Below are positions 15,578 to 34,593 of a DNA stretch of 64,000 nucleotides, one piece after another. Made by a program: the position numbers and the translations under genes. Each line of letters begins with the position of its first letter. Within the stretch, counting starts at the first letter, position 1. The DNA is taken from sequence record DRR723986_576; one strand, given 5' to 3'. Below the pieces are notes generated by a model. It searched no databases, was not told where the DNA came from, and was given only the letters and a program-made list of their open reading frames with translations.

Positions 15578-15608
15578 CGTATTTCCTTTCTTTTACTACC
15601 GAAGTCCA

Positions 15609-17309
15609 TCAACGCCGTTGGGCATAGGGAGAGATCAGCAACAGCGCCATTAAGCGCCGCCAAAATTGTTCGGTGGATGCCGCGCGTTCGCCGCTCGCGT
15701 GAGTCTGGGCAGCCGCCAGCAAACGGCTGGCCGTCGCGTCGTCGATATCGCGCATCAGCAACTTCCGGCGCATGGCCGCCAGTGCCTCGCCGGGGTCCTC
15801 CTGCTGGTCTGCAGCCCAGGCGGCGTTACTCACGCCCTCGCTGCGGGACTGCCCCGCGACACTGATAACGTGGCGCCAACGCTCGAGTAGGCCATTGACA
15901 CTGGCCCAGTAGCCCTCGCTATCCGGGTAGCCGTCGGGGCTAGGCCACTGAAAGGGAACATGGCCGGTACGCGAGATCATGCTGTCGCTATTCGGCCCTT
16001 CATAGGTCGGGTTCAGATCAATATCCAGCGGGTCCAGCAAGCCAAAGTCGAGCTCGGGCAGGGCATCAATATTCGCCAAACCCAACATACTGTAGAGATC
16101 GGGAATAGCCGAGGCCCGCAATAAATCCGACAAGGTGAGGCTGTCATTCATCTCCGGTTCCAGAGCGCGCACCAGCGCAATTGCGCTCTCTTGTGGCCGT
16201 GTCAGCTTTGCGTCTGCCGCATTTTGAAATTCCTCGCTACTAAATACCGCTCGAAGCATTGCCGGAATATCACCATGCTCCCCCCAGGCTGCCGCTACCG
16301 AGGAAATAAAGGCCTCCGGCGCAGCAGAATCGCGCACAAATCGCCGGTATAACTTACTGGCAATAAATCGCCGCGTTGAAGGGTGGGCGACGAGGATATC
16401 CAGCACTTGCTCACCATCTTCCATGCCTCTGCCTGCTGGCAGGGTGTGACCCAATACCCGCTTTTCGTTGCTATCGTGTTGTTCGCCGTCGAATAGAAAG
16501 CCGTGGTGGTTATTCGCCAAACACAAACGGTCGTCGCCATCGGTTTGAATACCCCAGCCGGTAAATGCCCGAGCAACTTCCCAGATATCGTCCTCGGTAT
16601 ACCCTCCACCCACACCCAATGTGTGTAGCTCCATCAGTTCGCGGGCGTAATTTTCGTTGGGGTGCTTTTTGGTGGAGCGACGATTATCCAAGTATTCCAA
16701 CATTGCCGGGCTTTTAGCTGACGCATTAAGTAAGCCGCGAAAACTTCCCAGCGCGTTTGCCCGAATAACATCGCGATCGTCCACCGTCTTCATGTGACGC
16801 GCAATGCCATCTCCGTGATAGATCGTGAAGTGATCGCTCCAAAAATCGACCATCACCTCAAACAACTGGCGACGGCTAAAAACCCGCCGAAACAGCGTCG
16901 CACTGCGCAGCTCTCGCATCGCCCGGCGATCATCATTGAGCTGAGCAAGGCGGCAGCCGTCGTAGTTGACCGTAGGCCAGCGGAAATTAACCTCTGCCTC
17001 AATGTCAGCGTCGCGCGCCGCCGACATCGACAGCTGCTGCTCAAGCCAGGCATTTGCGCCAGCTTCCGCCACTGCCTGCATACTTTGCGGTGTAGGCCCC
17101 CACGTGGCGCGTTTGAGCAAGTGTAGCTCTGCAGGTGCCGGGGGAAGATCGGGCTGGGGAGTATCTGCCGACGAAACTTCCGACATAATAACGTCGTTAG
17201 CTTCGTCATTATTTGTACTGCCGGCGCCACCTCCACCGCCGCCACAGGCCGTGGCGCCCAAGGCAACAACGGCGGCACTAGAACGAATAAAGTCTCTGCG
17301 GGAAGTCAT
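15609..17309 (-). CDS. DUF1800 domain protein, Tat lipoprotein
   Basis: SRRDFIR Tat motif plus ATAC lipobox; FWSDHF, YLDN, PNENYARELMELHTLG. Confidence 0.88.
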   Translation of the reverse strand: MTSRRDFIRSSAAVVALGATACGGGGGGAGSTNNDEANDVIMSEVSSADTPQPDLPPAPAELHLLKRATWGPTPQSMQAVAEAGANAWLEQQLSMSAARDADIEAEVNFRWPTVNYDGCRLAQLNDDRRAMRELRSATLFRRVFSRRQLFEVMVDFWSDHFTIYHGDGIARHMKTVDDRDVIRANALGSFRGLLNASAKSPAMLEYLDNRRSTKKHPNENYARELMELHTLGVGGGYTEDDIWEVARAFTGWGIQTDGDDRLCLANNHHGFLFDGEQHDSNEKRVLGHTLPAGRGMEDGEQVLDILVAHPSTRRFIASKLYRRFVRDSAAPEAFISSVAAAWGEHGDIPAMLRAVFSSEEFQNAADAKLTRPQESAIALVRALEPEMNDSLTLSDLLRASAIPDLYSMLGLANIDALPELDFGLLDPLDIDLNPTYEGPNSDSMISRTGHVPFQWPSPDGYPDSEGYWASVNGLLERWRHVISVAGQSRSEGVSNAAWAADQQEDPGEALAAMRRKLLMRDIDDATASRLLAAAQTHASGERAASTEQFWRRLMALLLISPYAQRR

Positions 17310-17418: not shown

Positions 17419-19707
17419 CTAAAGTGCGAACCGCAGCTCAGCACTGAACATGCGGGGCGGCATCAAAAATCCCATATGAGAGCCACTAAAGATGGGCATA
17501 TCTGCGGCAAAATGGCGGATGGTTTTGTTCTCCAGGTTTTTAATATGCCCCATAAATTGCCAACGGCCATTGGGATCGACGATGCCGGCATGAAGATTAA
17601 TCAGATGATACGCATCCTGGCTGTCGATGGGGTCGGCATCCAGGTCAAACAATATCCGGTCGCGCCAGCTCATATCAGCGCCGACCATCATGGCGACTTT
17701 TTCTTGCCACAACGGTACGGCAACATTAAAGCCGGCGGTGGCACTGATTTTCGGTGCGCGGGGTAGCTGCGATCCACTTAGATCGCAGGTTTCTTCATTG
17801 GATGACGCCGGGCAGGGCCCGTCTTTATAGCTGTCGAAGCGGGCATCGCTATAGCCCCAACTCGCAAAGAACTGGCTGCCACGCCAGGGCTGCCAACTGA
17901 TATCAATCTCCGCCCCCTCAGTGGTCGCCTTCGCGGCATTGTTCACAATAAAGCCGTTGCCGATAAATGCCTGTATCTGCATATCGCTAAATTCAGTGTG
18001 GTAGAGCGCGGTATTAATCGTAAGTACGCCGTCGTAGGCAGTGAGCTTGTAGCCCAGCTCATAGGCCTTGGCGCGTTCCTGATCAAAGCCGGACTCATCC
18101 GCCGTGCGTGCCAGCGGGTTATAGCCTCCCGCTTTAAATCCTTCTGAATAGCTGGCGTAGATCAAGTCGTCGTCCAGGCTGTATTTCATCGATAGCTTGG
18201 GGGCGATATTGGACTCTTCCCGCGTGTCCTTCAGCTGGTACTCGGTCACCCCGAAGGCGGACTGCAACAGCAAGCCGGTTTGCTCATAATTCTGGTCCAG
18301 GTCTACCTTTTTCTTTTCTTCCGATGCCCGCAAGCCAGCCACTAGGCTCAATCGGTCAGTGATATTCCAGGTGAGTTGCGAGAACAGCGCCAGGGTTTCG
18401 GTATGTTGAATAAAACGCTGGTGCAAGGCATCGGTGGTTAACGCGCCCAATAGATTATCGAGGGGGTCGAGCAATGGCGTCAGCACGCCGCCAAGCAGAT
18501 CGGTCACAACATCCAAACCGAGCGCAGGCAGTAACAAGCCCTGAAGTGGCCCTTTGGGCAGCATGCGCAGCTCGCCGGTTAGGTCGTTGTCAGACTGAAA
18601 CGCAAAGCCCCCCACTAGGTATTCCAGCTTTCCCGGCGGCGAACTCAAACGCAGCTCCAGCATTTGCTGGCGGTAGTCGGTTTCTCGCCCCCAGTCGGCG
18701 ATCGGTGCCGAGGCCGTATCAGCATCCAGATATAGCCATTCCTCGGCACGCGCGTCGCTGGCGATCAGCGTTAGCCGGTGCTCGGCGACATCCCAGTTCG
18801 CCTCCAGATTCCACACTTCGGTGTCGCTCCAGCTTTCATTCGGCGCGTCGGCGTGGCTGCGGTAATCAAAGTTGGCTTCCAGATTCGGGTCAAACAAACC
18901 GTGTACAAGAGCGGCGTCGCCACCCAGCACGAAGGGCTCCCATCCCTGACCGCTGTCGCGTGACTCGCCTTGGTAGTAGGTCAACACGGCCGTCAAGGTA
19001 TCCAGCGGCGTAAACAACATTTTGGCGCGCAGCCCCTCTTTGTCGACGCGCTTTTCATCTGTGCCGCGCAACACATTGTTTACATAGCCATCGCGGCGGT
19101 CGCTGGTTGCCGCGACGCGCAGAGCAAGCCGGTCTTCCACCAGCGGCGCATTGATCATGGCGTCATATTTTTCACCGGAAAACTGCCCATGAGCGGCGCT
19201 GGCCGATACCCGCCACTCTTCCTCAGGTTGAGCGGTACTGATGCTTATTGCACCGGCCACCGTATTTTTACCAAACAGTGTGCCCTGCGGCCCTTTCAAC
19301 ATTTCCACTCGGGCCAGATCGAGAAAGGCATCTTGCAAGAAGGCCATTTTTCCGTAGTAAATACCGTCCACATAGATCCCTACCGCCTGCTCCATGCCAT
19401 CATTAATCGGCGAGTTCAGGCCGCGCATGCCCACCTGCACATAGCCCGGGGTCATATTAATTTCCGTATTCGGGCTGGCCAGAGAAATATCTTCAAAAGA
19501 CGCGATGGCAGAATTTTTCATGCGCTCAGCACTGAGCACAGATACCGCGATGGGAACATCTTGAATCGACTCGGAACGCTTTTGCGCAGTAACGATCACT
19601 TCTTCGATATGAGAGGCGCGCTTGTGCTCTGCTGCCATTGCAGGTAACGCCAACAACTGACCAATAACCAGCCCACACAAGCAGTGCGTTTTCATTGCCT
19701 TGTTCAT
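17419..19707 (-). CDS. TonB-dependent receptor
   Basis: IEEVIVTAQKRSESIQDVP, KGPQGTLFGKN, GFKAGGYN. Confidence 0.92.
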   Translation of the reverse strand: MNKAMKTHCLCGLVIGQLLALPAMAAEHKRASHIEEVIVTAQKRSESIQDVPIAVSVLSAERMKNSAIASFEDISLASPNTEINMTPGYVQVGMRGLNSPINDGMEQAVGIYVDGIYYGKMAFLQDAFLDLARVEMLKGPQGTLFGKNTVAGAISISTAQPEEEWRVSASAAHGQFSGEKYDAMINAPLVEDRLALRVAATSDRRDGYVNNVLRGTDEKRVDKEGLRAKMLFTPLDTLTAVLTYYQGESRDSGQGWEPFVLGGDAALVHGLFDPNLEANFDYRSHADAPNESWSDTEVWNLEANWDVAEHRLTLIASDARAEEWLYLDADTASAPIADWGRETDYRQQMLELRLSSPPGKLEYLVGGFAFQSDNDLTGELRMLPKGPLQGLLLPALGLDVVTDLLGGVLTPLLDPLDNLLGALTTDALHQRFIQHTETLALFSQLTWNITDRLSLVAGLRASEEKKKVDLDQNYEQTGLLLQSAFGVTEYQLKDTREESNIAPKLSMKYSLDDDLIYASYSEGFKAGGYNPLARTADESGFDQERAKAYELGYKLTAYDGVLTINTALYHTEFSDMQIQAFIGNGFIVNNAAKATTEGAEIDISWQPWRGSQFFASWGYSDARFDSYKDGPCPASSNEETCDLSGSQLPRAPKISATAGFNVAVPLWQEKVAMMVGADMSWRDRILFDLDADPIDSQDAYHLINLHAGIVDPNGRWQFMGHIKNLENKTIRHFAADMPIFSGSHMGFLMPPRMFSAELRFAL

Positions 19708-20572: not shown

Positions 20573-20588
20573 CATACCATACCGTATG
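20573..20588. promoter_or_regulatory. Putative operator of adjacent TetR (CATAC-N6-GTATG)
   Basis: Inverted repeat catac catacc gtatg in the divergent intergenic region. Confidence 0.5.
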
Positions 20589-20603
20589 GTACGGAAATAA
20601 TAT

Positions 20604-20620
20604 TGTCAATATATTTGACT
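20604..20620. promoter_or_regulatory. Shared palindromic operator copy 1 (TGTCAA-N5-TTGACT)
   Basis: tgtcaa tatat ttgact; motif recurs at 27674, 29507, 34476 and 34577. Confidence 0.7.
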
Positions 20621-20634: not shown

Positions 20635-21201
20635 ATGGGCGACCCGCAGCCACAAAAAAGCCGCAAATCAAAAACGCAGTTTATTCACGCCGCACTGGAA
20701 ATACTGGCCGATGAGGGCAACGTGAAAGCGCTGACCATAGACAGCCTATGCCAGCAGCTGGGTGTTTCTAAGGGGAGCTTTTACTGGCACTTCAAAGGGC
20801 GGGCGCAACTGATCGAGGCGCTGGTGGCGTTTTGGGCCGACGAGTTTCAGCAGAGCATTCATCAGCGCATTCGCCAAAGTGCCCACGACAAACCCGAGCG
20901 CGCGTTTGAAGAGCTAATCGGCTTCTGGCTGAGCAGTAATTTCTCGCGCCTGGATCAAGTCATGCGCAATTGGGCGCGCGAAGAAGACGCCGTCGCCGCG
21001 GCCGTGCACCATGCCGACCAACTGCTAATGAACTTTGTCGCGCAGCTGTTTGTCGCCATGGGCAATGACGAGATCGAAGCCCATCACCGAGCACGCTTAT
21101 TAATCGCAGTGGGTATCGCTGAACCACAAATCCAGCACCTGCCACACGCCGGTAGTGCCGACGAGGCAGCGCGCTGGGTCGCCACCAAACTACTCCGCTA
21201 G
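20635..21201 (+). CDS. TetR/AcrR family regulator
   Basis: LGVSKGSFYWHFKGR HTH. Confidence 0.9.
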   Translation: MGDPQPQKSRKSKTQFIHAALEILADEGNVKALTIDSLCQQLGVSKGSFYWHFKGRAQLIEALVAFWADEFQQSIHQRIRQSAHDKPERAFEELIGFWLSSNFSRLDQVMRNWAREEDAVAAAVHHADQLLMNFVAQLFVAMGNDEIEAHHRARLLIAVGIAEPQIQHLPHAGSADEAARWVATKLLR

Positions 21202-22551
21202 CGGTATAAAACGCAGCGGCAGGCCATCGGTTGGGAAGGAAATCGGCACCGGGTTGTAGGGCATTTCGTAGCCGGGCTGCGCTTCAATACGGTAGCGCTT
21301 TAACAAATGAAACAACACAATCTTCACCTGAATCTCCGCAAAATTCAGGCCGATACATTTGTGGCTGCCACCACCGAAAGGTAACCATTGGTAGAAATGC
21401 TTTTTGTGCTCGGCCCGCTCTGGCGAGAAACGCATTGGGTCAAAGCGCGTGGGCTCACTCCACCACTCTTCCAGGTAGTGAGTCATCAGCGGCGAAATGC
21501 CAATAGAGGTATTGGCTGGAATACGGTAACCGAATATCTCCGTTTCACGCACCGTGCGCCGTGGCACCACCGCCACCGGCGGGTACATACGCAGCGTTTC
21601 CTGCATCACAAAGCCCGCCAGGGAAAACTCAGCAAGCTGGTCAAAGCTCGGCGAGTCGCTATCGATACCGGCAAATTCTTCGCGCAATTTCTCCTGCCAT
21701 TCAGGATTTTTGGCCAATAAATATATTGTTGAACACAGCGTGCTGGTGGTCGTGTCATGGGCCGCGAACAGCAGAAAGATTATATGGTCGCGAACGGCTT
21801 TGTCATTGAGGAAGTTGCCATCTTCATCTTTGGCGTGACAAAACTGCGAGAAGAAATCATCGGTTTCCTGCTCGCGTTTTTTCTGAATATGTTGCTCGAC
21901 AAAACGTTCCAGTGTTTTGCGGCCATCCAAACCTTTTTTCCACGTTGTTCCGGGAATCGGCAACTTCACAACGGCCAGCGACGCCTCCATAGCATGAACA
22001 AAAGCGCGGTTAATTTTTTGCGCGTCGTCACCAATATCGACGCCCATAAATACCTGGGCCGCCACATCGAGTAAGATCGCTTTAATCTCGTCTTTAAACA
22101 TGACTTGCTGCCCAGCAGGCAGCTGCGCAAGGCGCTGATCGATCATCGGGTTCATGGTATCGACATACTTTGCCAGTACATCTTTTTTAAACGCCGACTG
22201 CAGTATTCGCCGATTGAGTTTATGGTCGGCGAAGTCCATCAGCATCAGACCGTTGGGAAACAAACGATCCAGGAAAGGATCCCAGGCACGCTTACTGGAA
22301 AATAGTTTTTCGCTGTCTTTCAGCAATATTTCATTGGCTTCTGGCCCGACCATTACCACCGTTTTTTGCAGCAGCGCATTGCTGCGAAAAATTCGACCAT
22401 ACTTGCGATACTTTTCCATCGACATGGCAAAGTAGTCGGTAAGAAACGGTATGGTGTCACCCAAAATTGGCAGGGCCCCGCGATCTCCCGGCAGGTGATC
22501 GATCTCAGAAGTGGGTTTTCGCGCTGCCTTGATGGTTTCTGCTGTCGACAT
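21190..22551 (-). CDS. Cytochrome P450 (CYP136-like)
   Basis: I-helix FAAHDTTT, ETLR (ExxR), heme motif FGGGSHKCIG. Confidence 0.93.
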   Translation of the reverse strand: MSTAETIKAARKPTSEIDHLPGDRGALPILGDTIPFLTDYFAMSMEKYRKYGRIFRSNALLQKTVVMVGPEANEILLKDSEKLFSSKRAWDPFLDRLFPNGLMLMDFADHKLNRRILQSAFKKDVLAKYVDTMNPMIDQRLAQLPAGQQVMFKDEIKAILLDVAAQVFMGVDIGDDAQKINRAFVHAMEASLAVVKLPIPGTTWKKGLDGRKTLERFVEQHIQKKREQETDDFFSQFCHAKDEDGNFLNDKAVRDHIIFLLFAAHDTTTSTLCSTIYLLAKNPEWQEKLREEFAGIDSDSPSFDQLAEFSLAGFVMQETLRMYPPVAVVPRRTVRETEIFGYRIPANTSIGISPLMTHYLEEWWSEPTRFDPMRFSPERAEHKKHFYQWLPFGGGSHKCIGLNFAEIQVKIVLFHLLKRYRIEAQPGYEMPYNPVPISFPTDGLPLRFIPLAE

Positions 22552-22563
22552 GTCCTAACTCCC

Positions 22564-24123
22564 TTACGCCATTTCGCTGTTGTCTAGCCGGTATTGCTCG
22601 GCAAACATTTCGCGGAGTTCTTTCTTTAAAATTTTTCCCGATGGATTGCGCGGCAGTCCTGGAACAAAACAGATATGTTTAGGTACTTTAAATGCCGCCA
22701 GTTTTCCTTCGCAGAACGTTTTCATTTCCGCAAGGCTGATTTCACACTCCGGCGCCGAGACTACAACGGCAAGGGGCACTTCCCCCCACCGCGAGTCGGG
22801 CACACCAATAATCGCCACGTCGGAAATTTCCGGGTGCGACATCAATAGATTTTCAATTTCCGCGGGATAAATATTTTCGCCACCGGAGATAATCATGTCT
22901 TTCACGCGGTCTTGAATAAACACATAGCCGTGCTCATCGATAATGCCCGCATCGCCGGTATGCAGCCAGCCATCAACAATCGTATCGGCGGTCGCTTCGG
23001 GTCGTTGCCAGTAGCCCTGCATAATCTGCGGCCCCTTGGCGAGTATCTCCCCTACTTCGCCCGGCGCGCATTCACCACCGTCGGTATCGACCACTTTTAG
23101 CGCAGTAGCAAACACCGCGCGACCGCAGGATCGCAGCAGGCCCGGCTCACCCGCCAAAGCACGGCGGTGATCGTCAGCAGTGAGAAACGTCAGGCCCATC
23201 GTCGCCTCGGTTTGCCCGTAACCCTGTACAAAATCGCAGCCAAATATGCGCATACAATCCTTCAGCAAACTTTCAGAAATGGGCGACCCGCCGTAGTTAA
23301 TGGTTTTCAGCGCAGAGAAATCATAGCGCTCAATATTCTCGACCATTGCCAGCGAAAACTGCAGCATTACCGGAATCACTGCCACGGTGGTGATCTTCTC
23401 GTTGGCCAATGTTTCGATCATGCCAACCGGGTCGTAGTCGCGGTGAATCACCATCGCCGAGCCGTATATCACACCGAGCATCGCCCCCACCAAACCCACC
23501 GCATGGAAGGTGGGCGCAATCACCAAGGCCTTGTCGTTTTCGGCCGGCCACACGCCGGTACTCATTGACGCCTGATAACTATTCAGCAGTACATTGCTAT
23601 GGCTAATTAACACGCCCTTTGGGCGGCCGGTGGTGCCGCTGGTGTACATATGAAACAGAATATCGTCGCCTGCGATATCCACCTCGGCGGCGGCATTCGC
23701 CCCTTTGCACCAGTTTTTAAGGTCGTCTTGCCCGGCTGTCGGCGCCAGGTAAATGCGCGGCAGTGCCTGCATTACAGGCCCGCACAGACTGTCGAACTCT
23801 GCGTCGAGAAACAGCGCGACCAGCTGCGCGTCGGCGGCGATATATTCCAGCTCGCCTTCGCTCAGTCGGTAATTGAGGCCCACCGCAATCGCACCAATGC
23901 GCGCACAGGCGAGGAATACACACAAATTGTCGACAGAGTTTTTTGCCAGTATGCCCACGCGCTGGCCTTTGCGAATGCCCTGGCCTTGCATGGCGCCGGC
24001 TATGGTACCCACGTAGTCCCAGGCCTGGCCAAAGGTTAGTGTCTGGCTGTCGTCTTGCAGCATCATGGCGTCGCTGCGACGCTGCGCATGAAAGGCGTGG
24101 TACTGATTAAAATTAGTAAACAT
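22564..24123 (-). CDS. Acyl-CoA synthetase (long-chain fatty acid-CoA ligase family)
   Basis: YTSGTTGRPKG, GYGQTE, WLHTGD, DRVKDMIISGGENIYP. Confidence 0.93.
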   Translation of the reverse strand: MFTNFNQYHAFHAQRRSDAMMLQDDSQTLTFGQAWDYVGTIAGAMQGQGIRKGQRVGILAKNSVDNLCVFLACARIGAIAVGLNYRLSEGELEYIAADAQLVALFLDAEFDSLCGPVMQALPRIYLAPTAGQDDLKNWCKGANAAAEVDIAGDDILFHMYTSGTTGRPKGVLISHSNVLLNSYQASMSTGVWPAENDKALVIAPTFHAVGLVGAMLGVIYGSAMVIHRDYDPVGMIETLANEKITTVAVIPVMLQFSLAMVENIERYDFSALKTINYGGSPISESLLKDCMRIFGCDFVQGYGQTEATMGLTFLTADDHRRALAGEPGLLRSCGRAVFATALKVVDTDGGECAPGEVGEILAKGPQIMQGYWQRPEATADTIVDGWLHTGDAGIIDEHGYVFIQDRVKDMIISGGENIYPAEIENLLMSHPEISDVAIIGVPDSRWGEVPLAVVVSAPECEISLAEMKTFCEGKLAAFKVPKHICFVPGLPRNPSGKILKKELREMFAEQYRLDNSEMA

Positions 24124-24166
24124 GGCTGTCGCCTCGCCGTTGCTTTATAGGAGGAGTACCGCGCGA

Positions 24167-24937
24167 TTAGCGCGGCTGCATACGAATGGCACCGTCGAGA
24201 CGAATACACTCGCCGTTCATGTATTCATTCTCAGCGATCATCACCGACAGGTGAGCAATTTCCTCTGGGCGACCCAAACGCTGCGGGTTAACCACACTGG
24301 CTTCCAGCGACTTGTATGCCACCTCCGACAGAGTCTCAAACAGCGGCGTATGAATAAGACCCGGCACAATGGTGTTTACACGAATGCCGTAACTGGCAAG
24401 GTCGCGCGCCATTGGCAAGGTCATGCCAACTACACCACCCTTTGATGCACTGTAGGCCACTTGCCCTACCTGCCCCTCGTAGGCGGCAACCGAAGCGGTA
24501 TTAATAATGACGCCACGGGCGTTGTCCTGGTACGGCGCCGCGTCAGCCATCGCTTTTGCAGCGAGGCGGGCAACATTAAAGGTGCCAATCAAATTCACAT
24601 CGATAACGGTTTTATAGGCATCGAGCGGAAACACGCCCTGCTTGCCAAGGGTTTTAATCGCGTTACCAATCCCGGCGTAGTTGTTACAGATATGCAGGCC
24701 ACCAAACTTTTTAACCAGGGCATCGATGGCGGAGGCCACCGACTGTTCATCCGCGACGTTGACGTTGTAAAACGCCGCGCGGTCGCTGCCCAACTCTTCC
24801 ACCAAGGCGTTACCGCGAACCTCGTTCATATCGAAGATGGCAACCCTGGCGCCTTTGGCAGCGTAGGCGCGCACGGTCGCCTCTCCCAAGCCCGACGCGC
24901 CGCCAGTAACCAGTGCCACTTTGTTATTCAGATCCAT
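24167..24937 (-). CDS. SDR, 3-hydroxyacyl-CoA dehydrogenase type II-like
   Basis: TGGASGLG, AYSASKGG, IRLDGAIRMQPR; AGGAG RBS before ATG24937. Confidence 0.9.
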   Translation of the reverse strand: MDLNNKVALVTGGASGLGEATVRAYAAKGARVAIFDMNEVRGNALVEELGSDRAAFYNVNVADEQSVASAIDALVKKFGGLHICNNYAGIGNAIKTLGKQGVFPLDAYKTVIDVNLIGTFNVARLAAKAMADAAPYQDNARGVIINTASVAAYEGQVGQVAYSASKGGVVGMTLPMARDLASYGIRVNTIVPGLIHTPLFETLSEVAYKSLEASVVNPQRLGRPEEIAHLSVMIAENEYMNGECIRLDGAIRMQPR

Positions 24938-24984
24938 GTTGTTCTCCTTATTGTTGTATTGCTTGTTAAAACACATTCAGCTCA

Positions 24985-25368
24985 TTACCGAATGCCCGCA
25001 CCTGATGGCGGCACCGGTTGATATTTCGGGTTGTCGATAGCCAGTTTGGCGTCGCTGATTTTTTGCAACATTTCCAGCAACGCCGGGTCGCGGTAAGGCG
25101 CGTCGCTGCCCTCAATGCGGTCGCGAAGCTGTTCACGCAGTGTTGCCAACTCGCCCTGTTGGCCGAGAAATTCAGCGAGCAAGGCTTGCTCGTCGCGCTG
25201 CTGACTTCCCCCTGCATTCAACTCGCGACTGACAATACCAAGGCCATTGATTGCCACCCGCAATTGATACGACAGGGCTGGCGCGTCCACGGCGGGCAGT
25301 ATCGACTGTTTTAAAAACTCACTAACCGCTTCCAGTAATTGCTCGGCACTGGGATGCTCAATAGCCAT
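24985..25368 (-). CDS. DUF6285-like small protein (LvaB-like kinase partner)
   Basis: PSAEQLLEAVSEFL..RVAINGLGIV..KLAIDNPKY; directly after the APH kinase. Confidence 0.75.
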   Translation of the reverse strand: MAIEHPSAEQLLEAVSEFLKQSILPAVDAPALSYQLRVAINGLGIVSRELNAGGSQQRDEQALLAEFLGQQGELATLREQLRDRIEGSDAPYRDPALLEMLQKISDAKLAIDNPKYQPVPPSGAGIR

Positions 25369-25370
25369 GA

Positions 25371-26357
25371 TTAACGCTCCTTCAGCAGCCGAATAAGGTC
25401 GGCCTCACACTCAGACAAGCGCCGGCCGATCACCGCCCGCTCAACCGAACGCTGCTTACCCTGCAAATGAATGGCGCTCTGATACAGGCAGATCACCCCC
25501 CATTTCAGCACGCCAAACACCTCCCAATAGGCCAGCTCCCGCTCGGTAACATCGATCTCGCGGCCGCGGTTATAGGTTTCCAACAGGGCACGTTTGTCAC
25601 CAAAGCCGCCCACTGCTTTGTCGACGTGGCCAAAACGCCAGGAATTTACACACAGCCAGCCGAGGTCTTCTATCGGGTTGCCGATATGCGCCAACTCCCA
25701 ATCCAGCACCCCGCTCAGGCCCTGCTCGTCCACCAGGATATTGCCGTTGCGAAAATCGCCGTGCACGATGGCGGCTTGGCGCGGCGTTGGCGGGGTGTCC
25801 AATAAGTAGCGAAAGGCCAAATCAAACACCGGCAAACACTGACCGAATTCCCGATAGCGTTCCCGGTAACGCAGCACGTCGTCTTCTACCGACACTGACT
25901 CCAGCATAGCGGCGCGACGCGGATCAATATTGTGCAAAGACGCCAAAACAGCGCCGCACTGACCAGCCAGTAGCTCACGGGCAGTGGCAAAACGCGCGTC
26001 AGTAAGAATGCGCTTAGGTAGTGCCTCGCCTGCGAGCCGCCGCATCACAAAGCCGGCACCGCTCACGTCACTGGCCGGTATGTGAGCGATCACTTCCGGC
26101 ACCGGCAAGCCCTGCTGATACACCAACTCCAGCAAACTGGCTTCGGTGGGTTTGGTCAGGGCATTTTCAAACTGGTGTTCATCGTCGCCACAACGCAAGA
26201 TCAGCGGCTGCAATGTGCCCTCAGCCCAGGCATCAAACGCGGTGGTTTGCGACGCTGCGCCGCCCGTTAATTGCTTAACATTGTCGATGGTCACACTGGT
26301 CTGCCAATGCCCGGACAGGCATTCTTCCAGCAAGCGGACTAAGGCCATATCCGTCAT
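25371..26357 (-). CDS. APH-family phosphotransferase (LvaA / ACAD10-11 kinase domain-like)
   Basis: GGAASQT, HGDFRNGN, LDWELAHIGNPIEDLGW. Confidence 0.88.
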   Translation of the reverse strand: MTDMALVRLLEECLSGHWQTSVTIDNVKQLTGGAASQTTAFDAWAEGTLQPLILRCGDDEHQFENALTKPTEASLLELVYQQGLPVPEVIAHIPASDVSGAGFVMRRLAGEALPKRILTDARFATARELLAGQCGAVLASLHNIDPRRAAMLESVSVEDDVLRYRERYREFGQCLPVFDLAFRYLLDTPPTPRQAAIVHGDFRNGNILVDEQGLSGVLDWELAHIGNPIEDLGWLCVNSWRFGHVDKAVGGFGDKRALLETYNRGREIDVTERELAYWEVFGVLKWGVICLYQSAIHLQGKQRSVERAVIGRRLSECEADLIRLLKER

Positions 26358-27559
26358 GACGCAAACTCGGCATCGCGCTGGCCAAAGTCCCAGCCCTGAT
26401 CTTTTTCATAGGCTCGCAGCAGTTGCTTCGCCACCGACTGAACATGCACCTCGTCCGGGCCGTCATAGAGCCGCGCTTCGCGGGCATGGCGATACATGCG
26501 GCTTAGCGGAGTATCGTCGGTAAGGCCTTCGGCCCCATAAACCTGAATGGCGCGGTCAATTACCCGGTGCAACATGCCGGCACCGGCCACTTTAATTGCG
26601 CCAATTTCCACTCTGGCAATATCGCCTGCGTCGATGCGCTTGGCAGCGTGCAAAGTTAGCTGGCGGCAGGCCTGAATATCCTGGTAACTGTTAAACACAT
26701 GCTGCTGCATTAACTGTTTATCGGCGAGGCCAGAGCCAAACGCACTGCGCGACAGCAAGCGCTTACACATTAGGTCGTAGGCGCGCTGGGCCTGACCGAG
26801 CCAGCGCATGCAATGGAAGATTCGCCCGGGGCCGAGGCGCCGCTGGGCGATTTTAAAACCCGCGCCGCGCTCGCCTAACAGGTTGTCGGCAGGCACTTTC
26901 ACATTCACATATTCGGCCTCAAAGTGGCCGCCCGCGATGCCCAGCACCGGCGTATCCCGAAGGATGGAATAGCCCGGCGTACCCATTGGCACAATAATCA
27001 TGCTGAATGCGCTGTGGTCGGGCGCCTGTGTTTCGGTGCGGCACATTACCGTGGTGTAGGCGGCAATATCGGCGCCGGTGGTAAACCACTTGCGGCCATT
27101 AATATGCCAATAACCGTCTTTTAATTCGGCGGTGGTCTGCAGCTGCGTGGGGTCGGAGCTGGAAATGCCTGGCTCGGTCATCGCAAAACTGGGGTTGATG
27201 TCACCGGCAACCAGCGGCAGTAAATAACGCTCGCGCTGACTGTCTGACGCGTAGGCATTCAGCATGATGGAGTCCTGCAAGGAATACGTGCCGAAAATGC
27301 GCTGAGCGAATTCCGAGCGGCCGATAACCTCATTCAGGTAGGCGTATTCCAAAAACGGCAAGCCCATACCGCCGATCTCTTCGGGGTGGCCAAAGGCCCA
27401 TAAATGCTTTGCCTTGGCCTTCTTAACCAGCGCGGCCAATTCCGCCTCAGCAAGGGTTTTATCGGCAGATTGCAATAGCGGCTCGCGCGGATAAATCTCC
27501 TGCTCCAAGAAATCCACCAACTCGCTACGTATCTGCATCCAGTCTCGAGACATCGCCAT
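26354..27559 (-). CDS. Acyl-CoA dehydrogenase (ACAD10/11, LvaC-like)
   Basis: FAMTEP, INGRKWFTTGA, AQRRLGPGRIFHCMR, RLYDGPDEVH. Confidence 0.9.
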   Translation of the reverse strand: MAMSRDWMQIRSELVDFLEQEIYPREPLLQSADKTLAEAELAALVKKAKAKHLWAFGHPEEIGGMGLPFLEYAYLNEVIGRSEFAQRIFGTYSLQDSIMLNAYASDSQRERYLLPLVAGDINPSFAMTEPGISSSDPTQLQTTAELKDGYWHINGRKWFTTGADIAAYTTVMCRTETQAPDHSAFSMIIVPMGTPGYSILRDTPVLGIAGGHFEAEYVNVKVPADNLLGERGAGFKIAQRRLGPGRIFHCMRWLGQAQRAYDLMCKRLLSRSAFGSGLADKQLMQQHVFNSYQDIQACRQLTLHAAKRIDAGDIARVEIGAIKVAGAGMLHRVIDRAIQVYGAEGLTDDTPLSRMYRHAREARLYDGPDEVHVQSVAKQLLRAYEKDQGWDFGQRDAEFAS

Positions 27560-27673
27560 ATTCTTCTCTTTATCTGCGCTGTTAGGGAGCCACTGCACAA
27601 GCCGCCGAACCCTCAAGAGGTATATTGCAGAGGCCTGCTAGTTCTTGCTTATACAATCAACATGATTCATTAT

Positions 27674-27690
27674 TGTCAAGTATATTGACT
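27674..27690. promoter_or_regulatory. Shared palindromic operator copy 2
   Basis: tgtcaa gtata ttgact between the divergent ACAD and VOC genes. Confidence 0.75.
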
Positions 27691-28355: not shown

Positions 28356-28922
28356 TTAGGCCAAACGCTGGCACTGCTCAACAAAACGCGCAGCAAACAG
28401 TTTGGCAGTTTCAAGATCGCCGGGCAGGGGCGCCTCATCGGCGCTGGCATCGGCGGGCGACTGCGCCATCAAACCACTAAACGCCCCCAGGTAATTAACG
28501 TCGTTTCGCTGCGCCGCTTTGGTATTGGCCGCCGGCAACGCGGTGCCCACCCACAACATACCGTGCTGCATCGCAAAGGTATGCAGATAGGCCAGCGTTG
28601 AAGACTTGTCACCGTTCATCGATGCGGAGTTGGTAAAACCACCGGCCAATTTGTCCTTCCAGTTTTGCATCATCCAGCGGCCACTGGAGGCATCAGCCAC
28701 CCGCTTAAACTGCCAGGACACGCTGCCCATATACGTGGGCGAGCCGAATAAAACACCGTCGCTGTCATCCAAGGCCTGCCAGTGCGCGTCGCTGATCTCA
28801 CCGTCTTGGGAAATCGCAATCGCCGTTACTTCGGCCTGCTCGGCAAGGCTTTCCACTATGGTCTCTGCAAGACGCTGGGTATGGCCGTAGCCACTGTGGA
28901 ACAACACACAAATCTTAGTCAT
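28356..28922 (-). CDS. Flavodoxin-like / WrbA-type NAD(P)H-dependent FMN protein
   Basis: HSGYGHT FMN loop, GSPTYMGS, GGFTNSASMNGDK. Confidence 0.88.
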   Translation of the reverse strand: MTKICVLFHSGYGHTQRLAETIVESLAEQAEVTAIAISQDGEISDAHWQALDDSDGVLFGSPTYMGSVSWQFKRVADASSGRWMMQNWKDKLAGGFTNSASMNGDKSSTLAYLHTFAMQHGMLWVGTALPAANTKAAQRNDVNYLGAFSGLMAQSPADASADEAPLPGDLETAKLFAARFVEQCQRLA

Positions 28923-28958: not shown

Positions 28959-29417
28959 TTATTTTTCCGGCTCAACGATGGCGATCGGCCCCCAGCTTCT
29001 GTTCAGCGCTTGCTTCAAACCATTGAAGGCGGTTTTGCCGATTCGCTTGCGAAGCTCCTCCTCAATACCCAATAAAATTGCCTGGGCATCGCGGCGAATA
29101 TCATCCGCCTCGGCGCTGAACTTCACCATTTTCGCGCGCTTGTCTTTGGGGTCGGGTACAAGCTCCAAAATGTTTTCGTCCTTTAAACCCTGCAGCAACT
29201 GGTGGATCGCCTGACGGCTCACACCGAGGTTGCGCGCCATATCAGCAGGGCGGTTAATGCCCGCGGTTACGCTCAACATAATCATCGAACGGGTGCGGTT
29301 CATCCGCTCCCAACCGGCCGCAGCCAAACTCGCCTGCAAGCTTTCGTCCACCCAGTATAGGGCGTAGGCAAGTGTGCCGATCAAATAGCCCTGATCCTGC
29401 TCAACCAATTTCTTCAT
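28959..29417 (-). CDS. MarR family regulator
   Basis: RPADMARNLGVSRQAIHQLL HTH, PDPKDKRAK wing. Confidence 0.9.
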   Translation of the reverse strand: MKKLVEQDQGYLIGTLAYALYWVDESLQASLAAAGWERMNRTRSMIMLSVTAGINRPADMARNLGVSRQAIHQLLQGLKDENILELVPDPKDKRAKMVKFSAEADDIRRDAQAILLGIEEELRKRIGKTAFNGLKQALNRSWGPIAIVEPEK

Positions 29418-29506: not shown

Positions 29507-29523
29507 TGTAAACTATATTGACA
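29507..29523. promoter_or_regulatory. Shared palindromic operator copy 3
   Basis: tgtaaa ctata ttgaca between marR and the hydrolase gene. Confidence 0.7.
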
Positions 29524-30785: not shown

Positions 30786-31925
30786 TTACCGGCTGGGATT
30801 AATCAGGTATTTCTTGCCGGTGGCCTGCTGGCTGTACTCAGCGACCACATCGGCCTGCAATACATCCAGCAGCGACACTTCATCGCTGTAGTGGCTGGCA
30901 AAGGTGGTGTGTAGCTCATCGGCCACGCGCTGGCGCAATTCGCCGGCGCGCTCCGGCCCGACCTTGGCAATAAACGGCGTCAACAGCCAGGCATTAATGC
31001 CCCAACTAAAGCCGAAGTTGCGATGGACAATGGTCGGCGACAAATCCAGGCTGCCGTAGATGTAGAGCTGCTTGAAAGTATCGGAGCCATACGGCCCCGG
31101 CAGGGCAACCTCTTTCAGCGCCGCTTTTTCCATGCAGGTGAGAATACGGCTACCCAGCTCACCGCCGCCAGTGGCGTCAAACGCCAGGTAGGCTCCCGTC
31201 TCTTCAATCGCCCGGGTCAGGTCGCTCATAAAGCTGTCGTCGCTGGAATTGCAGACGTATTTGGCGCCCTGGGATTTCAGCAACTCAACCTGCTCGGGCT
31301 TACGCACAATATTAATGAGATCAATGCCATCTTTCTGGCAGACACGGTTAAGCATCTGCCCAAGATTGGACGCCGCCGCCGTGTGGATCAGCGCCTTGAA
31401 ACCTTCGCGACGCATTGTCTCAACCATACCCAGTGCCGTCAGGGGGTTCACAAAGCAGGACGCGCCGTCGCGGGCCGAGGTGCCCTCATTCAATGGCAGA
31501 CACTGCATCACATTCACTTTGCGGTACTGGCAGTAAAGCGCGCCGTCCATCACCGCCACGGTTTTACCCAACAGTGCCTGCGCAGCGGCACTGGCACCGG
31601 CCTTGACCACGGTGCCCGCCCCTTCATTTCCCGCCGCCAGCGGCTTGCCAATTCGCGGTTTAACGCGGCCCTCCAGGCCAGGGCGCAGTTTGGCGGTGTA
31701 CACGGTATCGACACCACTGCCCGTGGTTTTGCCGGTGCTGACATCGGCGGGGGCAATCAGTGTGGCCTGATCCGAGGGGTTGATGGGGGTCGCCTCAATG
31801 CGCACCACCACCTCATCGTCGCCTGGCTCGGGGATCGGCGAGGATTTCAGTATCAGTTTGAGGTAGCCGTCGTCGGTGACCAGCGAGCGCAGTTGCAGGC
31901 CGGTATCGGGAAGCGTGTCGTGCAT
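30786..31925 (-). CDS. MDR superfamily zinc-independent oxidoreductase (enoyl/alkenal reductase-like)
   Basis: ATPINPSD, GNEGAGTV, FVNPLTA, AAASNLGQML. Confidence 0.85.
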   Translation of the reverse strand: MHDTLPDTGLQLRSLVTDDGYLKLILKSSPIPEPGDDEVVVRIEATPINPSDQATLIAPADVSTGKTTGSGVDTVYTAKLRPGLEGRVKPRIGKPLAAGNEGAGTVVKAGASAAAQALLGKTVAVMDGALYCQYRKVNVMQCLPLNEGTSARDGASCFVNPLTALGMVETMRREGFKALIHTAAASNLGQMLNRVCQKDGIDLINIVRKPEQVELLKSQGAKYVCNSSDDSFMSDLTRAIEETGAYLAFDATGGGELGSRILTCMEKAALKEVALPGPYGSDTFKQLYIYGSLDLSPTIVHRNFGFSWGINAWLLTPFIAKVGPERAGELRQRVADELHTTFASHYSDEVSLLDVLQADVVAEYSQQATGKKYLINPSR

Positions 31926-32006: not shown

Positions 32007-34394
32007 TCACCACTGATAATTCAGCGAGGCAAAAATTTTCCGCATCGACTTCTGCCGGGTGTTGTAAGTGCCGGGGAAAAACACGGTATCGAGCACTTGC
32101 CCCAGCACTTCTTCGTCGGTGAGGTTGCTGCCGCCAACGGTAATTGCCCAGCCGGAATCCAACGATGCCAGGCTCACCCGCGCCGACACGGTGGTGTAGC
32201 CCGGCGAAAAGGTGTTTTTATCCAGGTCGCCGTCGGTGTATTGATCGCCTTGGTAAAGAATATCGACGCTGGTACTCATGGCTAAGCCGAAGACCGGGAA
32301 CTCCAATGTTGGAGTAAAGCTGGCGGTTTCTTTGGGGGCGAAGGAGATGCGTCGACCGCCAAGGTCTTGCTGGGCGTCGACACCTTCATTAATCGGCGCT
32401 GGCGCGGCGGGGTAACTGTCGTAGCGCGCATCCAACAGGCCTACAGAACCGGCAAGGCGCAGAAACGGCATTGGCGTGATCCACATAACGTCCATTTCAA
32501 GGCCGTCAGAGGTGGCGGTAGCGGCGTTTTTTACATCGAAGAAGGCACCGTTGAAGGCCAGCACTTGCAGATTTTCAAACTGAGTTTGGTACACGGCGAG
32601 GTTAAAACGCAGGGTGTTATCCAAGAAGCTGCCTTTTAAACCGGCCTCGACGGTGACGGCTTTTTCGGGCTCGAAATTGAGGTCTTCACCACCGAAGGAC
32701 GAGGCATTAAAGCCACCACTTTTGTAACCGCGGGCGTAGCTGATAAAGACATTGGTGTCTTCGTTCAAATAGTACTGAAGCGACAGCTTGGGCGACAAAT
32801 CGCTCTCTTCGCGCTCGATCCCTTCCTCCTGATATTCCTCGGCGCTTAGCGCGGTGCCCATCAAACACGGCAGCCCCAGGTTGCCAGTGCGGCAGCGCGA
32901 GGTGCCCGAGGCGTCGGCAGTTTTGGTTTCGCGGCTGTAGCGCAGCCCGGGAGTGAGTACCCACTTATCGGTGATGTACCAGCTGAATTGGGCAAAGGCC
33001 GCGTAGGCTTCCACATCCAGAAAGTAGTCCAGCAGGTAGCTGTCGTCGCCAATCAAGGTGGAACCCAGACCGGAGATCAAGCCCAAGCCCGCCAGGTTTA
33101 AACCGCCGAGCAAGCCGCCTGAGCCGGCATTGGTATTGCCACTGATCAGTTGCAGGGCGTCGTCGGTGGTGAGGTAGGCCAGCAGGTCGTCGCCGGCGGT
33201 AATTTGCGTTTGTTGTTCAAATTCCGAATGCAGAGCGTAAATACCGGCAACCAGATTAACGCCCTCGCCCAACCCGAAAAGGCTCTCGCTGCTGGCAGTA
33301 AACCGAAGCTCCAGCGACTGCTGATTGTAGTCCGAGGTCACGGCTAGTTTGGCAAGGTCGGCAGGGGAAGCGTCGAGGTCGACAAGGCTGTCGATGTATA
33401 ACTCGCTGTCGGCAACAATTAATGTCAACGCGCTGTTCTGCAATCCGGCCACGTCGCCCAGCTGCCACTCACTTAGCAATGACAGGCTGTCGGATGCTTT
33501 TTCGATAAAGCCCGGCACATTGTAGGAGCTGCGAAAGTCGTAGGGATTGTCTTCAATATTCGGGTCGTAGTTTTCAAGAAAGGTGCGGGTGTCGTCGTCC
33601 AGTTTGAAGATTTGCAGTCCCCAGTAATTGGCCATGGTTTCCGATTGGTAGGCATTCAGCTCCATATGCAGCGAATCGCTGGGGTCGAAAAAGATCTTCA
33701 AACGCTGGGCATTTTGTTCGTGTTGATCGTCGCGGCGCTGCAAAAACTGGTTATACAGGTCACCCTCTTTGTCGCGGTCCATCGCCGAAAAGCGCAGCGA
33801 AAGGTGGTCGCCCACGCCACCGGCTACGGCCGCTTCCAGGTAGCGCTCATCGGCGTCGTTTTCCTGCCATTGCAGTTTCCCGGAGAAGTCGTCGGTGGGG
33901 TCAGCCGAGCTAACATTGAATACGCCCGCCACGGTGTTTTTTCCAAACAGGGTGCCCTGCGGCCCGCGCAGGACTTCTATACGGGCAATATCGAACATGG
34001 CTTCGCTAAAGTATGAAGGGCGGTTGTAAAACACCTCGTCCTGCACGAAACCCACCGAGCTTTCGAAAGCGGCATTCAGCGGGTTGGAGCCAAAACCGCG
34101 AATATTTACCTGGGTAAGTGCCGGATCGGTATCGGAGGAAAAGCGCACATTGGGCATATACGGGGCGAGGTCTTGCAGGTTAACCGCGCCCACTTCTTTC
34201 ATAAATTCGCCGCTCACGGCGGTGAGCGAGATGGGCACATCCTGAGACGATTGCTCGACTTTCTGCGCGCTAACGATGACCTCCTCCAACACCCGGCGCT
34301 CTTTTACCGGCGCGGAAAACGCGTTGTGAGCCGTCAGTATTAGTGCAATGGCTACGCAGTGAGGACGTAACGATGTACTGCTGTTGATAAACAT
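32007..34394 (-). CDS. TonB-dependent receptor
   Basis: LEEVIVSAQK, RGPQGTLFGKN, GYKSGGFN, C-terminal YQW. Confidence 0.92.
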   Translation of the reverse strand: MFINSSTSLRPHCVAIALILTAHNAFSAPVKERRVLEEVIVSAQKVEQSSQDVPISLTAVSGEFMKEVGAVNLQDLAPYMPNVRFSSDTDPALTQVNIRGFGSNPLNAAFESSVGFVQDEVFYNRPSYFSEAMFDIARIEVLRGPQGTLFGKNTVAGVFNVSSADPTDDFSGKLQWQENDADERYLEAAVAGGVGDHLSLRFSAMDRDKEGDLYNQFLQRRDDQHEQNAQRLKIFFDPSDSLHMELNAYQSETMANYWGLQIFKLDDDTRTFLENYDPNIEDNPYDFRSSYNVPGFIEKASDSLSLLSEWQLGDVAGLQNSALTLIVADSELYIDSLVDLDASPADLAKLAVTSDYNQQSLELRFTASSESLFGLGEGVNLVAGIYALHSEFEQQTQITAGDDLLAYLTTDDALQLISGNTNAGSGGLLGGLNLAGLGLISGLGSTLIGDDSYLLDYFLDVEAYAAFAQFSWYITDKWVLTPGLRYSRETKTADASGTSRCRTGNLGLPCLMGTALSAEEYQEEGIEREESDLSPKLSLQYYLNEDTNVFISYARGYKSGGFNASSFGGEDLNFEPEKAVTVEAGLKGSFLDNTLRFNLAVYQTQFENLQVLAFNGAFFDVKNAATATSDGLEMDVMWITPMPFLRLAGSVGLLDARYDSYPAAPAPINEGVDAQQDLGGRRISFAPKETASFTPTLEFPVFGLAMSTSVDILYQGDQYTDGDLDKNTFSPGYTTVSARVSLASLDSGWAITVGGSNLTDEEVLGQVLDTVFFPGTYNTRQKSMRKIFASLNYQW

Positions 34395-34475
34395 AGGCAC
34401 CCATCTTTTCTATTATTATTGTTGTTGCGTTTGAGCCATCCGGTGCAGTGAAGCGCCTTGCACGGCCCGAATTAA

Positions 34476-34576: not shown

Positions 34577-34593
34577 TGTCAATATTATTGACA
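34577..34593. promoter_or_regulatory. Shared palindromic operator copy 5 (perfect half-sites)
   Basis: tgtcaa tatta ttgaca upstream of the GST operon. Confidence 0.78.

Follow-up and report, generated by a model that had tools for sequence, protein, structure and literature searches.

A putative lva/ACAD10-11-like operon with an accessory cytochrome P450 in a marine member of the Spongiibacteraceae

In a stretch of 64,000 nucleotides from sequence record DRR723986_576, referred to below as the window, six closely packed genes on the minus strand (21190-27559) form a predicted operon. They encode an acyl-CoA dehydrogenase (ACAD) of the ACAD10/11 type, an APH-family kinase, a small protein of the family DUF6285, a short-chain dehydrogenase/reductase (SDR), an acyl-CoA ligase and a cytochrome P450. 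The first three, ACAD, kinase and DUF6285, probably constitute a divergent bacterial version of LvaAB/LvaC and ACAD10/11 chemistry, to which accessory genes are attached downstream. Judged by every sequence criterion applied, the locus is lva/ACAD10-11-like, yet it represents a separate lineage and not an lva orthologue. From gene order in relatives, the link to the P450 is real as synteny, but young and optional. The first-pass annotation, made from the letters alone, had placed the operon at exactly these coordinates; all six families were recovered by Pfam, including the five (ACAD, APH, DUF6285, SDR and ligase) that it had equated with the families of lvaABCDE. From the ACAD to the P450 gene, the open reading frames (ORFs) overlap by 4 nt and are then separated by gaps of 2, 8, 43, and 12 nt.

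The lva/ACAD10-11 pathway frees fatty acyl-CoAs of a 4-hydroxyl group that acts as a block. In mammals, the 4-hydroxyacyl-CoA kinase/eliminase route was defined only in 2024-2025, and we know of no natural substrate of this route in bacteria besides levulinate. In Pseudomonas, the route was reportedly defined by Rand et al. in 2017 together with the levulinate operon lvaABCDE of P. putida.

The window stems from a member of the Spongiibacteraceae, because its P450 matches proteins of Neomelitea salexigens DSM 19753 (L002) at 98%, of a Spongiibacter metagenome-assembled genome (MAG; L003) at 83% and of Spongiibacter pelagi (L007) at 66%. The whole operon of N. salexigens DSM 19753 is 97-99% identical to that of the window. 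In the taxonomy used, the Spongiibacteraceae are marine Gammaproteobacteria of the same order as Pseudomonas.

The ACAD, kinase and DUF6285 core

The lva operon of P. putida is described in PMC6692424, PMC11342911 and PMC12440821, and proteins for comparison were taken from a locus with lva layout. The published layout was searched for in Pseudomonadaceae genomes with PF19802, the Pfam model of DUF6285, which scored above its cut-off in 24 of 251 genomes. Fourteen of these places were compared together with their flanks, ORFs at the high-GC loci being delimited by ORF listing and tblastn anchoring. Six of them (L154-L158 and L163) show the order APH-DUF6285-ACAD-SDR-ligase on one strand. In L155, the locus used for comparison, this block is preceded by a divergent regulator gene with Sigma54_activat and PrpR_N domains and followed by genes for a DUF485 protein and a sodium:solute symporter (SSF), which is the layout described for lvaR and lvaABCDEFG in PMC6692424.

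The ACAD gene (26354-27559, minus strand) specifies 401 amino acids with Pfam matches to Acyl-CoA_dh_1, Acyl-CoA_dh_M and Acyl-CoA_dh_N of 127, 74 and 46 bits. Its open frame (26354-27616) would yield 420 aa from a TTG codon, but the ATG at 27559 is preceded by a purine-rich stretch, and the resulting 401 aa match the lengths of the orthologues, mostly 399-404 aa (416 aa in L127). In a PDB search, the best solved match was mouse ACAD11 (8v3u) with an E value of 2.7e-73 and 250.5 bits; a further ACAD11 match reached 248 bits, and 4hr3 and human ACAD11 were among the other top matches. The best conventional ACAD, SCAD (2vig), scored 159 bits, and the ACAD in the LvaC position of L155 gave 196.6 bits with ACAD11, less than the window protein. 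The HMMER alignment, where residue numbers of the chain are shifted by one, places RRLGPGRIFHCMR and YDGPDEVH from the window ACAD opposite R626/R631/H634/R637 and D753 of ACAD11. The R/H/R phosphate-binding residues (HCMR signature), the catalytic Asp and the general R631 are all kept. As described in PMC12440821, R626, H634 and R637 lie on one helix of ACAD11 and bind the 4-phosphate, D753 acts as the base, and substitution of these residues abolishes the activity of the ACAD domain. The scores and the retained residues both speak for an ACAD10/11-type dehydrogenase, as had been proposed.

The kinase gene (25371-26357, minus strand; 328 aa; Pfam APH 116.6 bits) overlaps the ACAD gene by 4 nt, the two being separate ORFs and not one fused polypeptide. 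Its top PDB matches are 3dxp, 9o56, 9fsg and the kinase domain of ACAD11, all of them weak (E values 4.4e-9 to 2.5e-7). These four are among the six structures matched by the kinase in the LvaA position of L155, which scores somewhat higher. The residues H199-x-D201...N206 and D219-W-E221 are invariant across 18 aligned kinases of the window type and of Pseudomonadaceae. The pair D201/N206 has the same spacing as D220/N225 of ACAD11, and DWE is the motif described for kinase domains of the ACAD10/ACAD11 type in PMC13596139.

The third gene (24985-25368, minus strand) encodes 127 aa with a PF19802 match of 79.9 bits (cut-off 28.1). That DUF6285 is the family of LvaB is corroborated by L155, in which the protein in the LvaB position (118 aa) matches PF19802 with 78.6 bits within an operon of lva layout. 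In PMC6692424, LvaB is described as a 12-kDa protein that pulls down with LvaA, and the LvaA-LvaB pair makes 4-phosphovaleryl-CoA. A natural fusion of APH and DUF6285 in a single ORF of 458 aa is present in L129 (4676-6052, plus strand; Pfam APH 127 bits and DUF6285 70 bits), and in a class-wide scan DUF6285 matches were located inside open frames of 472-477 aa in G130, G207, and G219, candidate fusions by frame length. An AlphaFold2 model of the window protein, based on an alignment of 14 sequences without L154, whose ORF held a stop, predicts four helices with a mean pLDDT of 85.6. Foldseek found no PDB match for this model; the best E value was 1.8, and none of the 149 matches listed reached E<=0.001. 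A paper naming DUF6285 was not found in the literature search.

A second lva-like layout was seen in the Pseudomonadaceae loci L159, L161, L162, and L164-L166, in which kinase and ACAD genes are either apart from each other or in a different order. Beside the kinase gene of most of these loci, tblastn with the window protein detects no DUF6285, though PF19802 matched in these regions. The layout recalls the P. citronellolis cluster described without lvaB in PMC6692424.

ACAD orthologues were searched in 401 genomes of the order; those obtained, at 66-99% identity, come from 7 of the 11 genomes that make up the genus group and from two further families. Ten orthologous loci (L002, L003, L007, and L121-L127) were compared with their flanks; G518 (ACAD 73%) was left out. 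The trio of ACAD, kinase and DUF6285 genes is present in all ten. Near the ACAD gene, homologues of a MarR regulator and of an alpha/beta-hydrolase are found in eight loci, a VOC/glyoxalase gene in seven, the ligase and P450 genes in five (L002, L003, L007, L121, and L125) and the SDR gene in two (L002 and L003). Since the trio is constant and SDR, ligase and P450 are present in part of the loci, the window operon is best regarded as a conserved trio with an accessory block. In L123, L124, and L126, a gene of opposite orientation comes after the DUF6285 gene, which is therefore the last of the operon. In another trio-only relative, L122, a PPK2 gene (6824-7780, minus strand; 369 bits) follows the DUF6285 gene on the same strand, perhaps in connection with the ATP-dependent step of the kinase.

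A maximum-likelihood tree was calculated from 36 ACADs of the fetched loci, a set that holds no mammalian sequence and from which L133 was dropped, in the alignment as well, because its ORF contained an internal stop. The ACADs of the window type form a clade of 11 sequences (support 100/99), with a sister group of three sequences at 55% identity. Those from lva layouts belong to a separate clade of 12 (support 100/100), and six more, designated ACAD11-like, constitute a clade in which the helix reads GRLGPGRIHHCMR. All three groups carry the HCMR signature; the ACAD of L153 lacks it, and those of L131, L132, and L134 have it in altered form.

Comparison with the P. putida operon gives the same picture of related parts in a different assembly. 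Shared are the five families, a kinase with a DUF6285 partner, HCMR and Asp in the ACAD, and SDR and ligase genes within the operon. In contrast, the gene order is C-A-B-D-E-P450 in the window and A-B-C-D-E(-F-G) in lva, a palindrome of the MarR/TetR type takes the place of the sigma54 activator (LvaR), and TonB-dependent receptors are found without the DUF485/SSF transporter (LvaFG). The SDR is no specific relative of LvaD, the ligase belongs to another subfamily, and the P450 is added. Pfam detected no Sigma54_activat, DUF485 or SSF domain near the window operon, the neighbours being TetR, MarR and TonB receptor genes. Between window and L155 proteins, identities amount to 36% for the ACAD, 31% for the kinase, 32% for DUF6285, 33% for the SDR and 30% for the ligase. 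The term lvaABCDE-like is consequently appropriate for the set of families, but not in the sense of orthology, given these identities, the separate ACAD clade and the other order and regulator. With mammalian ACAD10/ACAD11 (8v3u/8v3v; PMC12440821 and PMC11342911), the window proteins share the ACAD signature and, in the kinase, the D...N pair and DWE, whereas kinase and ACAD are separate genes, a DUF6285 partner exists that ACAD10/11 lack, and the similarity of the kinases is weak (33.5 bits).

Accessory genes and the distribution of the P450

The SDR gene (24167-24976, minus strand; 269 aa; adh_short 159.2 bits) is LvaD-like by position only. Its product is 33% identical over 207 residues (80.5 bits) to the SDR in the LvaD position of L155, to which another SDR of the window (35343-36104) is more similar (97.8 bits). 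The gene is found in two of the ten orthologous loci, and its equation with lvaD is supported by the presence of an SDR in the operon, less so by similarity and conservation. Homologues of 49-50% were noticed 2-4 kb from ACAD11-like ACAD genes in Pseudomonadaceae (L136, L138, and L140), and another of 49-50% heads a variant of the lva-like cluster in L165, also from this family. Rather than being of LvaD type, the operon SDR may be a recurrent companion of the ACAD11-like type of ACAD.

The ligase gene (22564-24123, minus strand; 519 aa; AMP-binding 271.3 bits, AMP-binding_C 71.2 bits) is LvaE-like by position, the identity to the ligase in the LvaE position of L155 being 30%. The protein falls into the NCBIfam subfamily NF004837, long-chain-fatty-acid--CoA ligase (503 bits, cut-off 476), in agreement with the earlier designation as a long-chain-type ligase. 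That subfamily is generic, however, and the nearest structures, 8weu/8wev, FadD13 and FadD5, include a feruloyl-CoA synthetase, so that the designation can be kept in a loose sense only.

The P450 gene (21190-22551, minus strand; 453 aa; Pfam p450 234 bits) is the last of the operon. Convergent with it is a gene for a TetR-family regulator (20635-21201, plus strand; TetR_N 38.5 bits), the 3' ends of both genes overlapping by 12 nt. The P450 motifs are intact, with AAHDTT in the I-helix, ETLR as ExxR and FGGGSHKCIG as heme loop. The best solved match is CYP120A1 (2ve3, E 1.5e-47), followed by 9wat, taxadiene 5-alpha-hydroxylase and CYP51s. Like the members of this CYP120A1/CYP51 clan, the window protein has the full length of an E-class P450 and its heme-Cys loop; the ranking of these relatives reflects match scores. 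An Atlas cluster with the automatic name "Cytochrome P450 136 family protein" scores 0.99 to the P450 by language-model features. This cluster name is the sole basis for calling the protein CYP136-like, as the first-pass annotation did, and the nearest solved structure is CYP120A1; CYP136-likeness is accordingly a reasonable lead and no more.

Homologues of the P450 were searched with one genome per species, and 80 places were kept of 122 confirmed. In only three of the 80 (L002, L003, and L007) is the P450 gene found beside homologues of the ACAD, APH and DUF6285 genes. Other homologues, with identities of 42-65%, occur in Zhongshania, another Spongiibacteraceae MAG, Alcanivorax, Sphingomonadales, Actinomycetospora, SAR86 and others, in varied contexts. 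They include a TetR-P450-HlyD-MFS arrangement in L005 and a location with molybdenum-cofactor genes in Alcanivorax. No P450 homologue was present within about 10 kb in the 14 Pseudomonadaceae DUF6285 loci, nor in 13 further loci (L128-L140), which surround ACAD homologues of lower similarity. Two contexts with genes of possible lipid metabolism were also recorded: in a Perlucidibaca MAG (L008, 8682-14312, plus strand), a row consists of an MpaB/Lcp-type oxygenase, a P450 (44%), a long ACAD and a thiolase, and in SAR86 (L015, 4326-17025, plus strand) a P450 (44%) lies among genes for an ACAD, two SDRs, an alpha/beta-hydrolase and an FAA-hydrolase.

Among the ten orthologous loci, those with and without the P450 differ in more than one gene. 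The TetR gene and a gene for a membrane protein of 178 aa accompany the P450 in all five P450-bearing loci and are found in none of the five trio-only loci, and TonB-dependent receptor 1 travels with the TetR-P450-ligase module in four of the five (L002, L003, L007, and L121). The place of the SDR gene is taken by two additional ACAD genes in L007 and L125, and L007 also has a DoxX gene before the P450 gene. The P450-bearing loci fall into two subclades of the ACAD tree, which bracket the trio-only loci L122-L124. The simplest reading of this pattern would be one gain of the linkage, followed by one uncoupling.

A shared palindrome and the genes around the operon

The first-pass annotation had suggested that TonB receptors are co-regulated with the operon. 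The palindrome GTCAATATAYTTGAC occurs with at most two mismatches at four sites in the window, compared with 0.08 expected. In the form GTCAA-N5-TTGAC with an AT-rich centre and at most one mismatch in an arm, four sites were found as well, compared with 0.2 on average and a maximum of two in 200 shuffled sequences. All four are located in divergent intergenic regions. One candidate operator (27675-27689) lies between the ACAD operon and the VOC gene, 116 nt upstream of the ACAD start, and overlaps a promoter-like site. The second (20605-20619) is in the spacer between the TetR gene and the operon of the membrane protein and TonB receptor 1, and is kept in L002, L003, and L121. The third (29508-29522), with one arm mismatch, separates the MarR and alpha/beta-hydrolase genes and is kept in L002, L003, L007, and L121-L125, and the fourth (34578-34592) lies between TonB receptor 2 and an operon beginning with a GST gene, and is kept in L121, L122, and L125. 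Equivalent palindromes are positioned 60-116 nt upstream of the ACAD gene in L002, L003, L122, L123, and L124, and one is also present in L121, whereas L126 and L127 yielded none. The palindrome is thus common to the ACAD operon and both receptor operons and retained in relatives, which argues for the suggested co-regulation.

Either MarR or TetR may bind these sites. In relatives, palindromes are also found in the MarR/hydrolase and receptor 2/GST spacers, including those of L122-L124. As sites are kept in these three loci without a TetR gene nearby, MarR is at least as good a candidate as TetR. Another, near-perfect palindrome, ACCATACCGTATGGT (20576-20590), precedes the shared operator by 15 nt in the promoter region of the TetR gene and may be the operator of TetR itself. 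As a shared operator it was rejected; it occurs only there in the window, apart from one site with three mismatches. Scans of the window for promoters and terminators gave numbers not above those in shuffled sequences (9 compared with 7.2 and 17 compared with 12.7, respectively).

The genes next to these sites extend the putative regulon considerably. The MarR gene (28959-29417, minus strand; Pfam MarR_2), the product of which is a candidate binder, is followed by a gene for a WrbA-like flavoprotein (28356-28922; 71.5 bits, below the cut-off of 141). The gene for TonB receptor 1 (17419-19707, minus strand; Pfam Plug and beta-barrel) has two genes for small proteins upstream and, directly downstream, a DUF1800/DUF1501 gene pair (14390-17309, minus strand), which is kept at this place in L002 and L003. 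TonB receptor 2 (32007-34400, minus strand; identified by Pfam), with an operator in its upstream region, is followed by a gene for an MDR-type dehydrogenase (30786-31925; PIG3-type match of 61.9 bits, below the cut-off of 296.8). Behind the fourth operator, an operon on the plus strand (34615-38254) contains genes for a GST, an SDR, a family-III CoA-transferase and an HMG-CoA lyase, and is syntenic with receptor 2 in L121, L122, and L125. The GST gave a YfcG-type match of 194.5 bits, below the cut-off of 332, and the HMG-CoA lyase a subfamily match of 309.7 bits, above the cut-off of 246. Besides the six-gene operon, the predicted regulon would therefore cover two TonB-receptor operons and genes for an alpha/beta-hydrolase, a VOC/glyoxalase, the WrbA-like protein, GST, MDR, CoA-transferase and HMG-CoA lyase. 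This mixture fits nutrient catabolism or detoxification of electrophiles.

More than half of the sampled words of the operon were detected in 15 runs of DNA type, 14 metagenomes (marine, seawater and estuary) and one run labelled with an organism. Two metatranscriptome libraries gave 9 and 14 contigs, most of them at least 95% alike, in which each of the six genes and the VOC gene are represented in part. One of them (24044-24244) spans the junction of SDR and ligase genes; none spans the junction of ligase and P450 genes with 31 nt on both sides, and the operon is partly uncovered. The depth of such contigs cannot rank genes, and a contig over two genes does not prove a common transcript. Because DNA can be present in these libraries, their cover is a weak hint of expression.

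A possible pathway and competing explanations

Genes, families, signature residues, synteny and operators were read directly from the DNA, and it is from them that we infer enzyme activities, substrates and a role of the P450. In the proposed route, the ligase would activate a free acid to the acyl-CoA, and the kinase, helped by its DUF6285 partner, would phosphorylate the 4-hydroxyl group of a 4-hydroxyacyl-CoA. The ACAD-fold enzyme would then eliminate phosphate, and the 2-enoyl-CoA formed would enter beta-oxidation. The SDR may interconvert 4-oxo and 4-hydroxy groups or act on another alcohol or ketone. The P450 would oxygenate a lipid-like substrate upstream, possibly yielding hydroxy acids that are trimmed by beta-oxidation until the hydroxyl group is at C4.

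Several observations weigh against this interpretation. The window-type ACADs stand apart from the lva clade in a tree that does not resolve the branching order among the major clades, the window proteins share no more than 30-36% identity with those of the lva layout, and the similarity of the kinase to the ACAD11 kinase domain is weak, as given above. The HCMR signature is also present in the ACADs of L136-L140, for which no kinase gene was found within 10 kb. SDR, ligase and P450 genes are not conserved with the core (two, five and five of ten loci). Three trio-only genomes keep a P450 of 65-66% at an unlinked position, about 37 kb away in G579, about 1.06 Mb away in G485 and on another contig in G447; in G544 none was found with the window query at E<=1e-40. 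Pfam detected no gene for a ferredoxin or reductase within the operon, though the gene for the WrbA-like flavoprotein adjoins that of MarR. Finally, kinase domains of the ACAD10 type, including prokaryotic ones, phosphorylate 1-O-alkylglycerols according to a 2026 preprint (PMC13596139), and the substrate of the window kinase is for this reason not certain.

A first alternative, which is considered unlikely though worth attention, is that the regulon serves mainly to detoxify electrophilic products of lipid oxidation, such as 4-hydroxyalkenals, oxylipins or quinones. GST, MDR, the WrbA-like and VOC proteins would neutralise the electrophile, and ligase, kinase and ACAD would burn the 4-hydroxy acid, resembling the disposal of 4-hydroxynonenal in mammals. 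The positions of the palindrome before the MarR and WrbA-like, VOC, alpha/beta-hydrolase, PIG3-like MDR and YfcG-like GST genes or operons would be in line with such a function, as would the synteny of MarR and alpha/beta-hydrolase genes with the trio in eight of the ten orthologous loci. The ACAD10/11 pathway has moreover been linked to 4-hydroxy acids derived from lipid peroxidation, as stated in PMC12440821 and PMC13596139. However, the NCBIfam matches of the partner proteins (WrbA-like, MDR and GST) are all below their cut-offs, and nutrient catabolism is more readily suggested by the two TonB-dependent receptors, the CoA-transferase and the HMG-CoA lyase. A likeness to MarR regulons known for quinones and electrophiles may exist.

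Improbable as well, although the distribution of the P450 invites it, is an origin of the P450, and perhaps of the ligase, as an unrelated passenger that landed with its own TetR and TonB-receptor module and serves another pathway. The ligase, P450, TetR and membrane-protein genes, with TonB receptor 1 in four of five cases, are present or absent as a block, P450 homologues elsewhere are found in many unrelated contexts, and orthologues are unlinked in the trio-only genomes. On the other hand, the gaps of 12 and 43 nt contain no strong internal terminator, the operator of the trio recurs in the promoter of the module itself, and the arrangement persists in two subclades of the ACAD tree.

The opposite possibility was put forward in the first-pass annotation, namely that the P450 is a dedicated gamma-hydroxylase, or unmasks the gamma-oxygen, of a large hydrophobic acid that is imported by the TonB receptors and then fed to kinase and ACAD. 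It could draw on the location of the P450 gene on the same strand, 12 nt from the ligase gene, and on the joint gain or loss of both, the ligase being present in all five P450-bearing and in none of the five trio-only loci. The TetR, membrane-protein and TonB receptor 1 genes (the latter in four of five) travel along, all sharing the operator, and in L004 a TetR-P450 pair (P450 62%) is divergent from homologues of TonB receptor 2 (61%) and of MarR (68%). Yet regiochemistry cannot be read from a sequence, only three of the 80 P450 loci adjoin lva-like genes, and three trio-only genomes keep the P450 unlinked. The nearest solved relatives presumably act on retinoic acid, taxadiene or sterols, and not at C4 of fatty acids. 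Gamma-specificity would also be needless, as any hydroxyl group on an even-numbered carbon should reach C4 after shortening of the chain. A P450 dedicated to the gamma position thus appears quite doubtful.

It is least probable, by a wide measure, that the kinase is a 1-O-alkylglycerol kinase in an operon for salvage of ether lipids: PMC13596139 reports phosphorylation of chimyl alcohol by the kinase domains of ACAD10/ACAD11 and several prokaryotic homologues, with CoA thioesters as activators and DWE, present in the window kinase, as the motif, but the kinase has DUF6285 as its partner, in the manner of LvaA and LvaB, which together make 4-phosphovaleryl-CoA (PMC6692424), the adjoining ACAD keeps every residue needed for turnover of 4-phosphoacyl-CoA, and the kinase is distant from that of ACAD11.

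The preferred explanation, a divergent LvaAB/LvaC and ACAD10/11-type core, could be extended in a speculative direction, to which little confidence is attached. The P450-ligase-TonB module and the trio might be wired into one MarR/TetR regulon for oxygenated lipids of algae or animals in marine Spongiibacteraceae. Just as tentatively, the substrates would be oxylipins, hydroxy fatty acids, gamma-lactones or 4-hydroxyalkenals, the P450 creating or repositioning a hydroxyl group that ends at C4. If this were true, a P450 would for the first time be seen to supply the 4-phosphoacyl-CoA route in a bacterium, and the pathway would be the bacterial equivalent of the mammalian disposal of 4-hydroxynonenal and 4-hydroxy acids. 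As far as titles and the openings of abstracts allow a judgement, no P450-linked cluster of lva type has been described, and nothing was found on this P450 family in searches for CYP120, Alcanivorax or Spongiibacter.

According to PMC6692424, homologues of lvaABCD were already listed for Alpha-, Beta- and Gammaproteobacteria by Rand et al. in 2017, and because of this range the trio may be covered by that list. The core would represent known chemistry; what appears to be new is the separate clade of ACAD, kinase and DUF6285, the other regulator and uptake system, and the lineage-restricted extension by ligase and P450.

For the family, the findings add a third well-separated clade of bacterial ACADs with every catalytic signature, and identify the LvaB partner as Pfam DUF6285, a family known here also from a fusion with the kinase. 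They further assign the module to a defined regulon, together with TonB-dependent receptors and, in some few species, a P450 and a ligase. If the link to the P450 is functional, possible enzymes for making or degrading gamma-lactone precursors would be at hand. N. salexigens DSM 19753, which can be cultured, offers a system to ask which longer or more complex 4-hydroxy and 4-oxo acids are degraded by marine bacteria.

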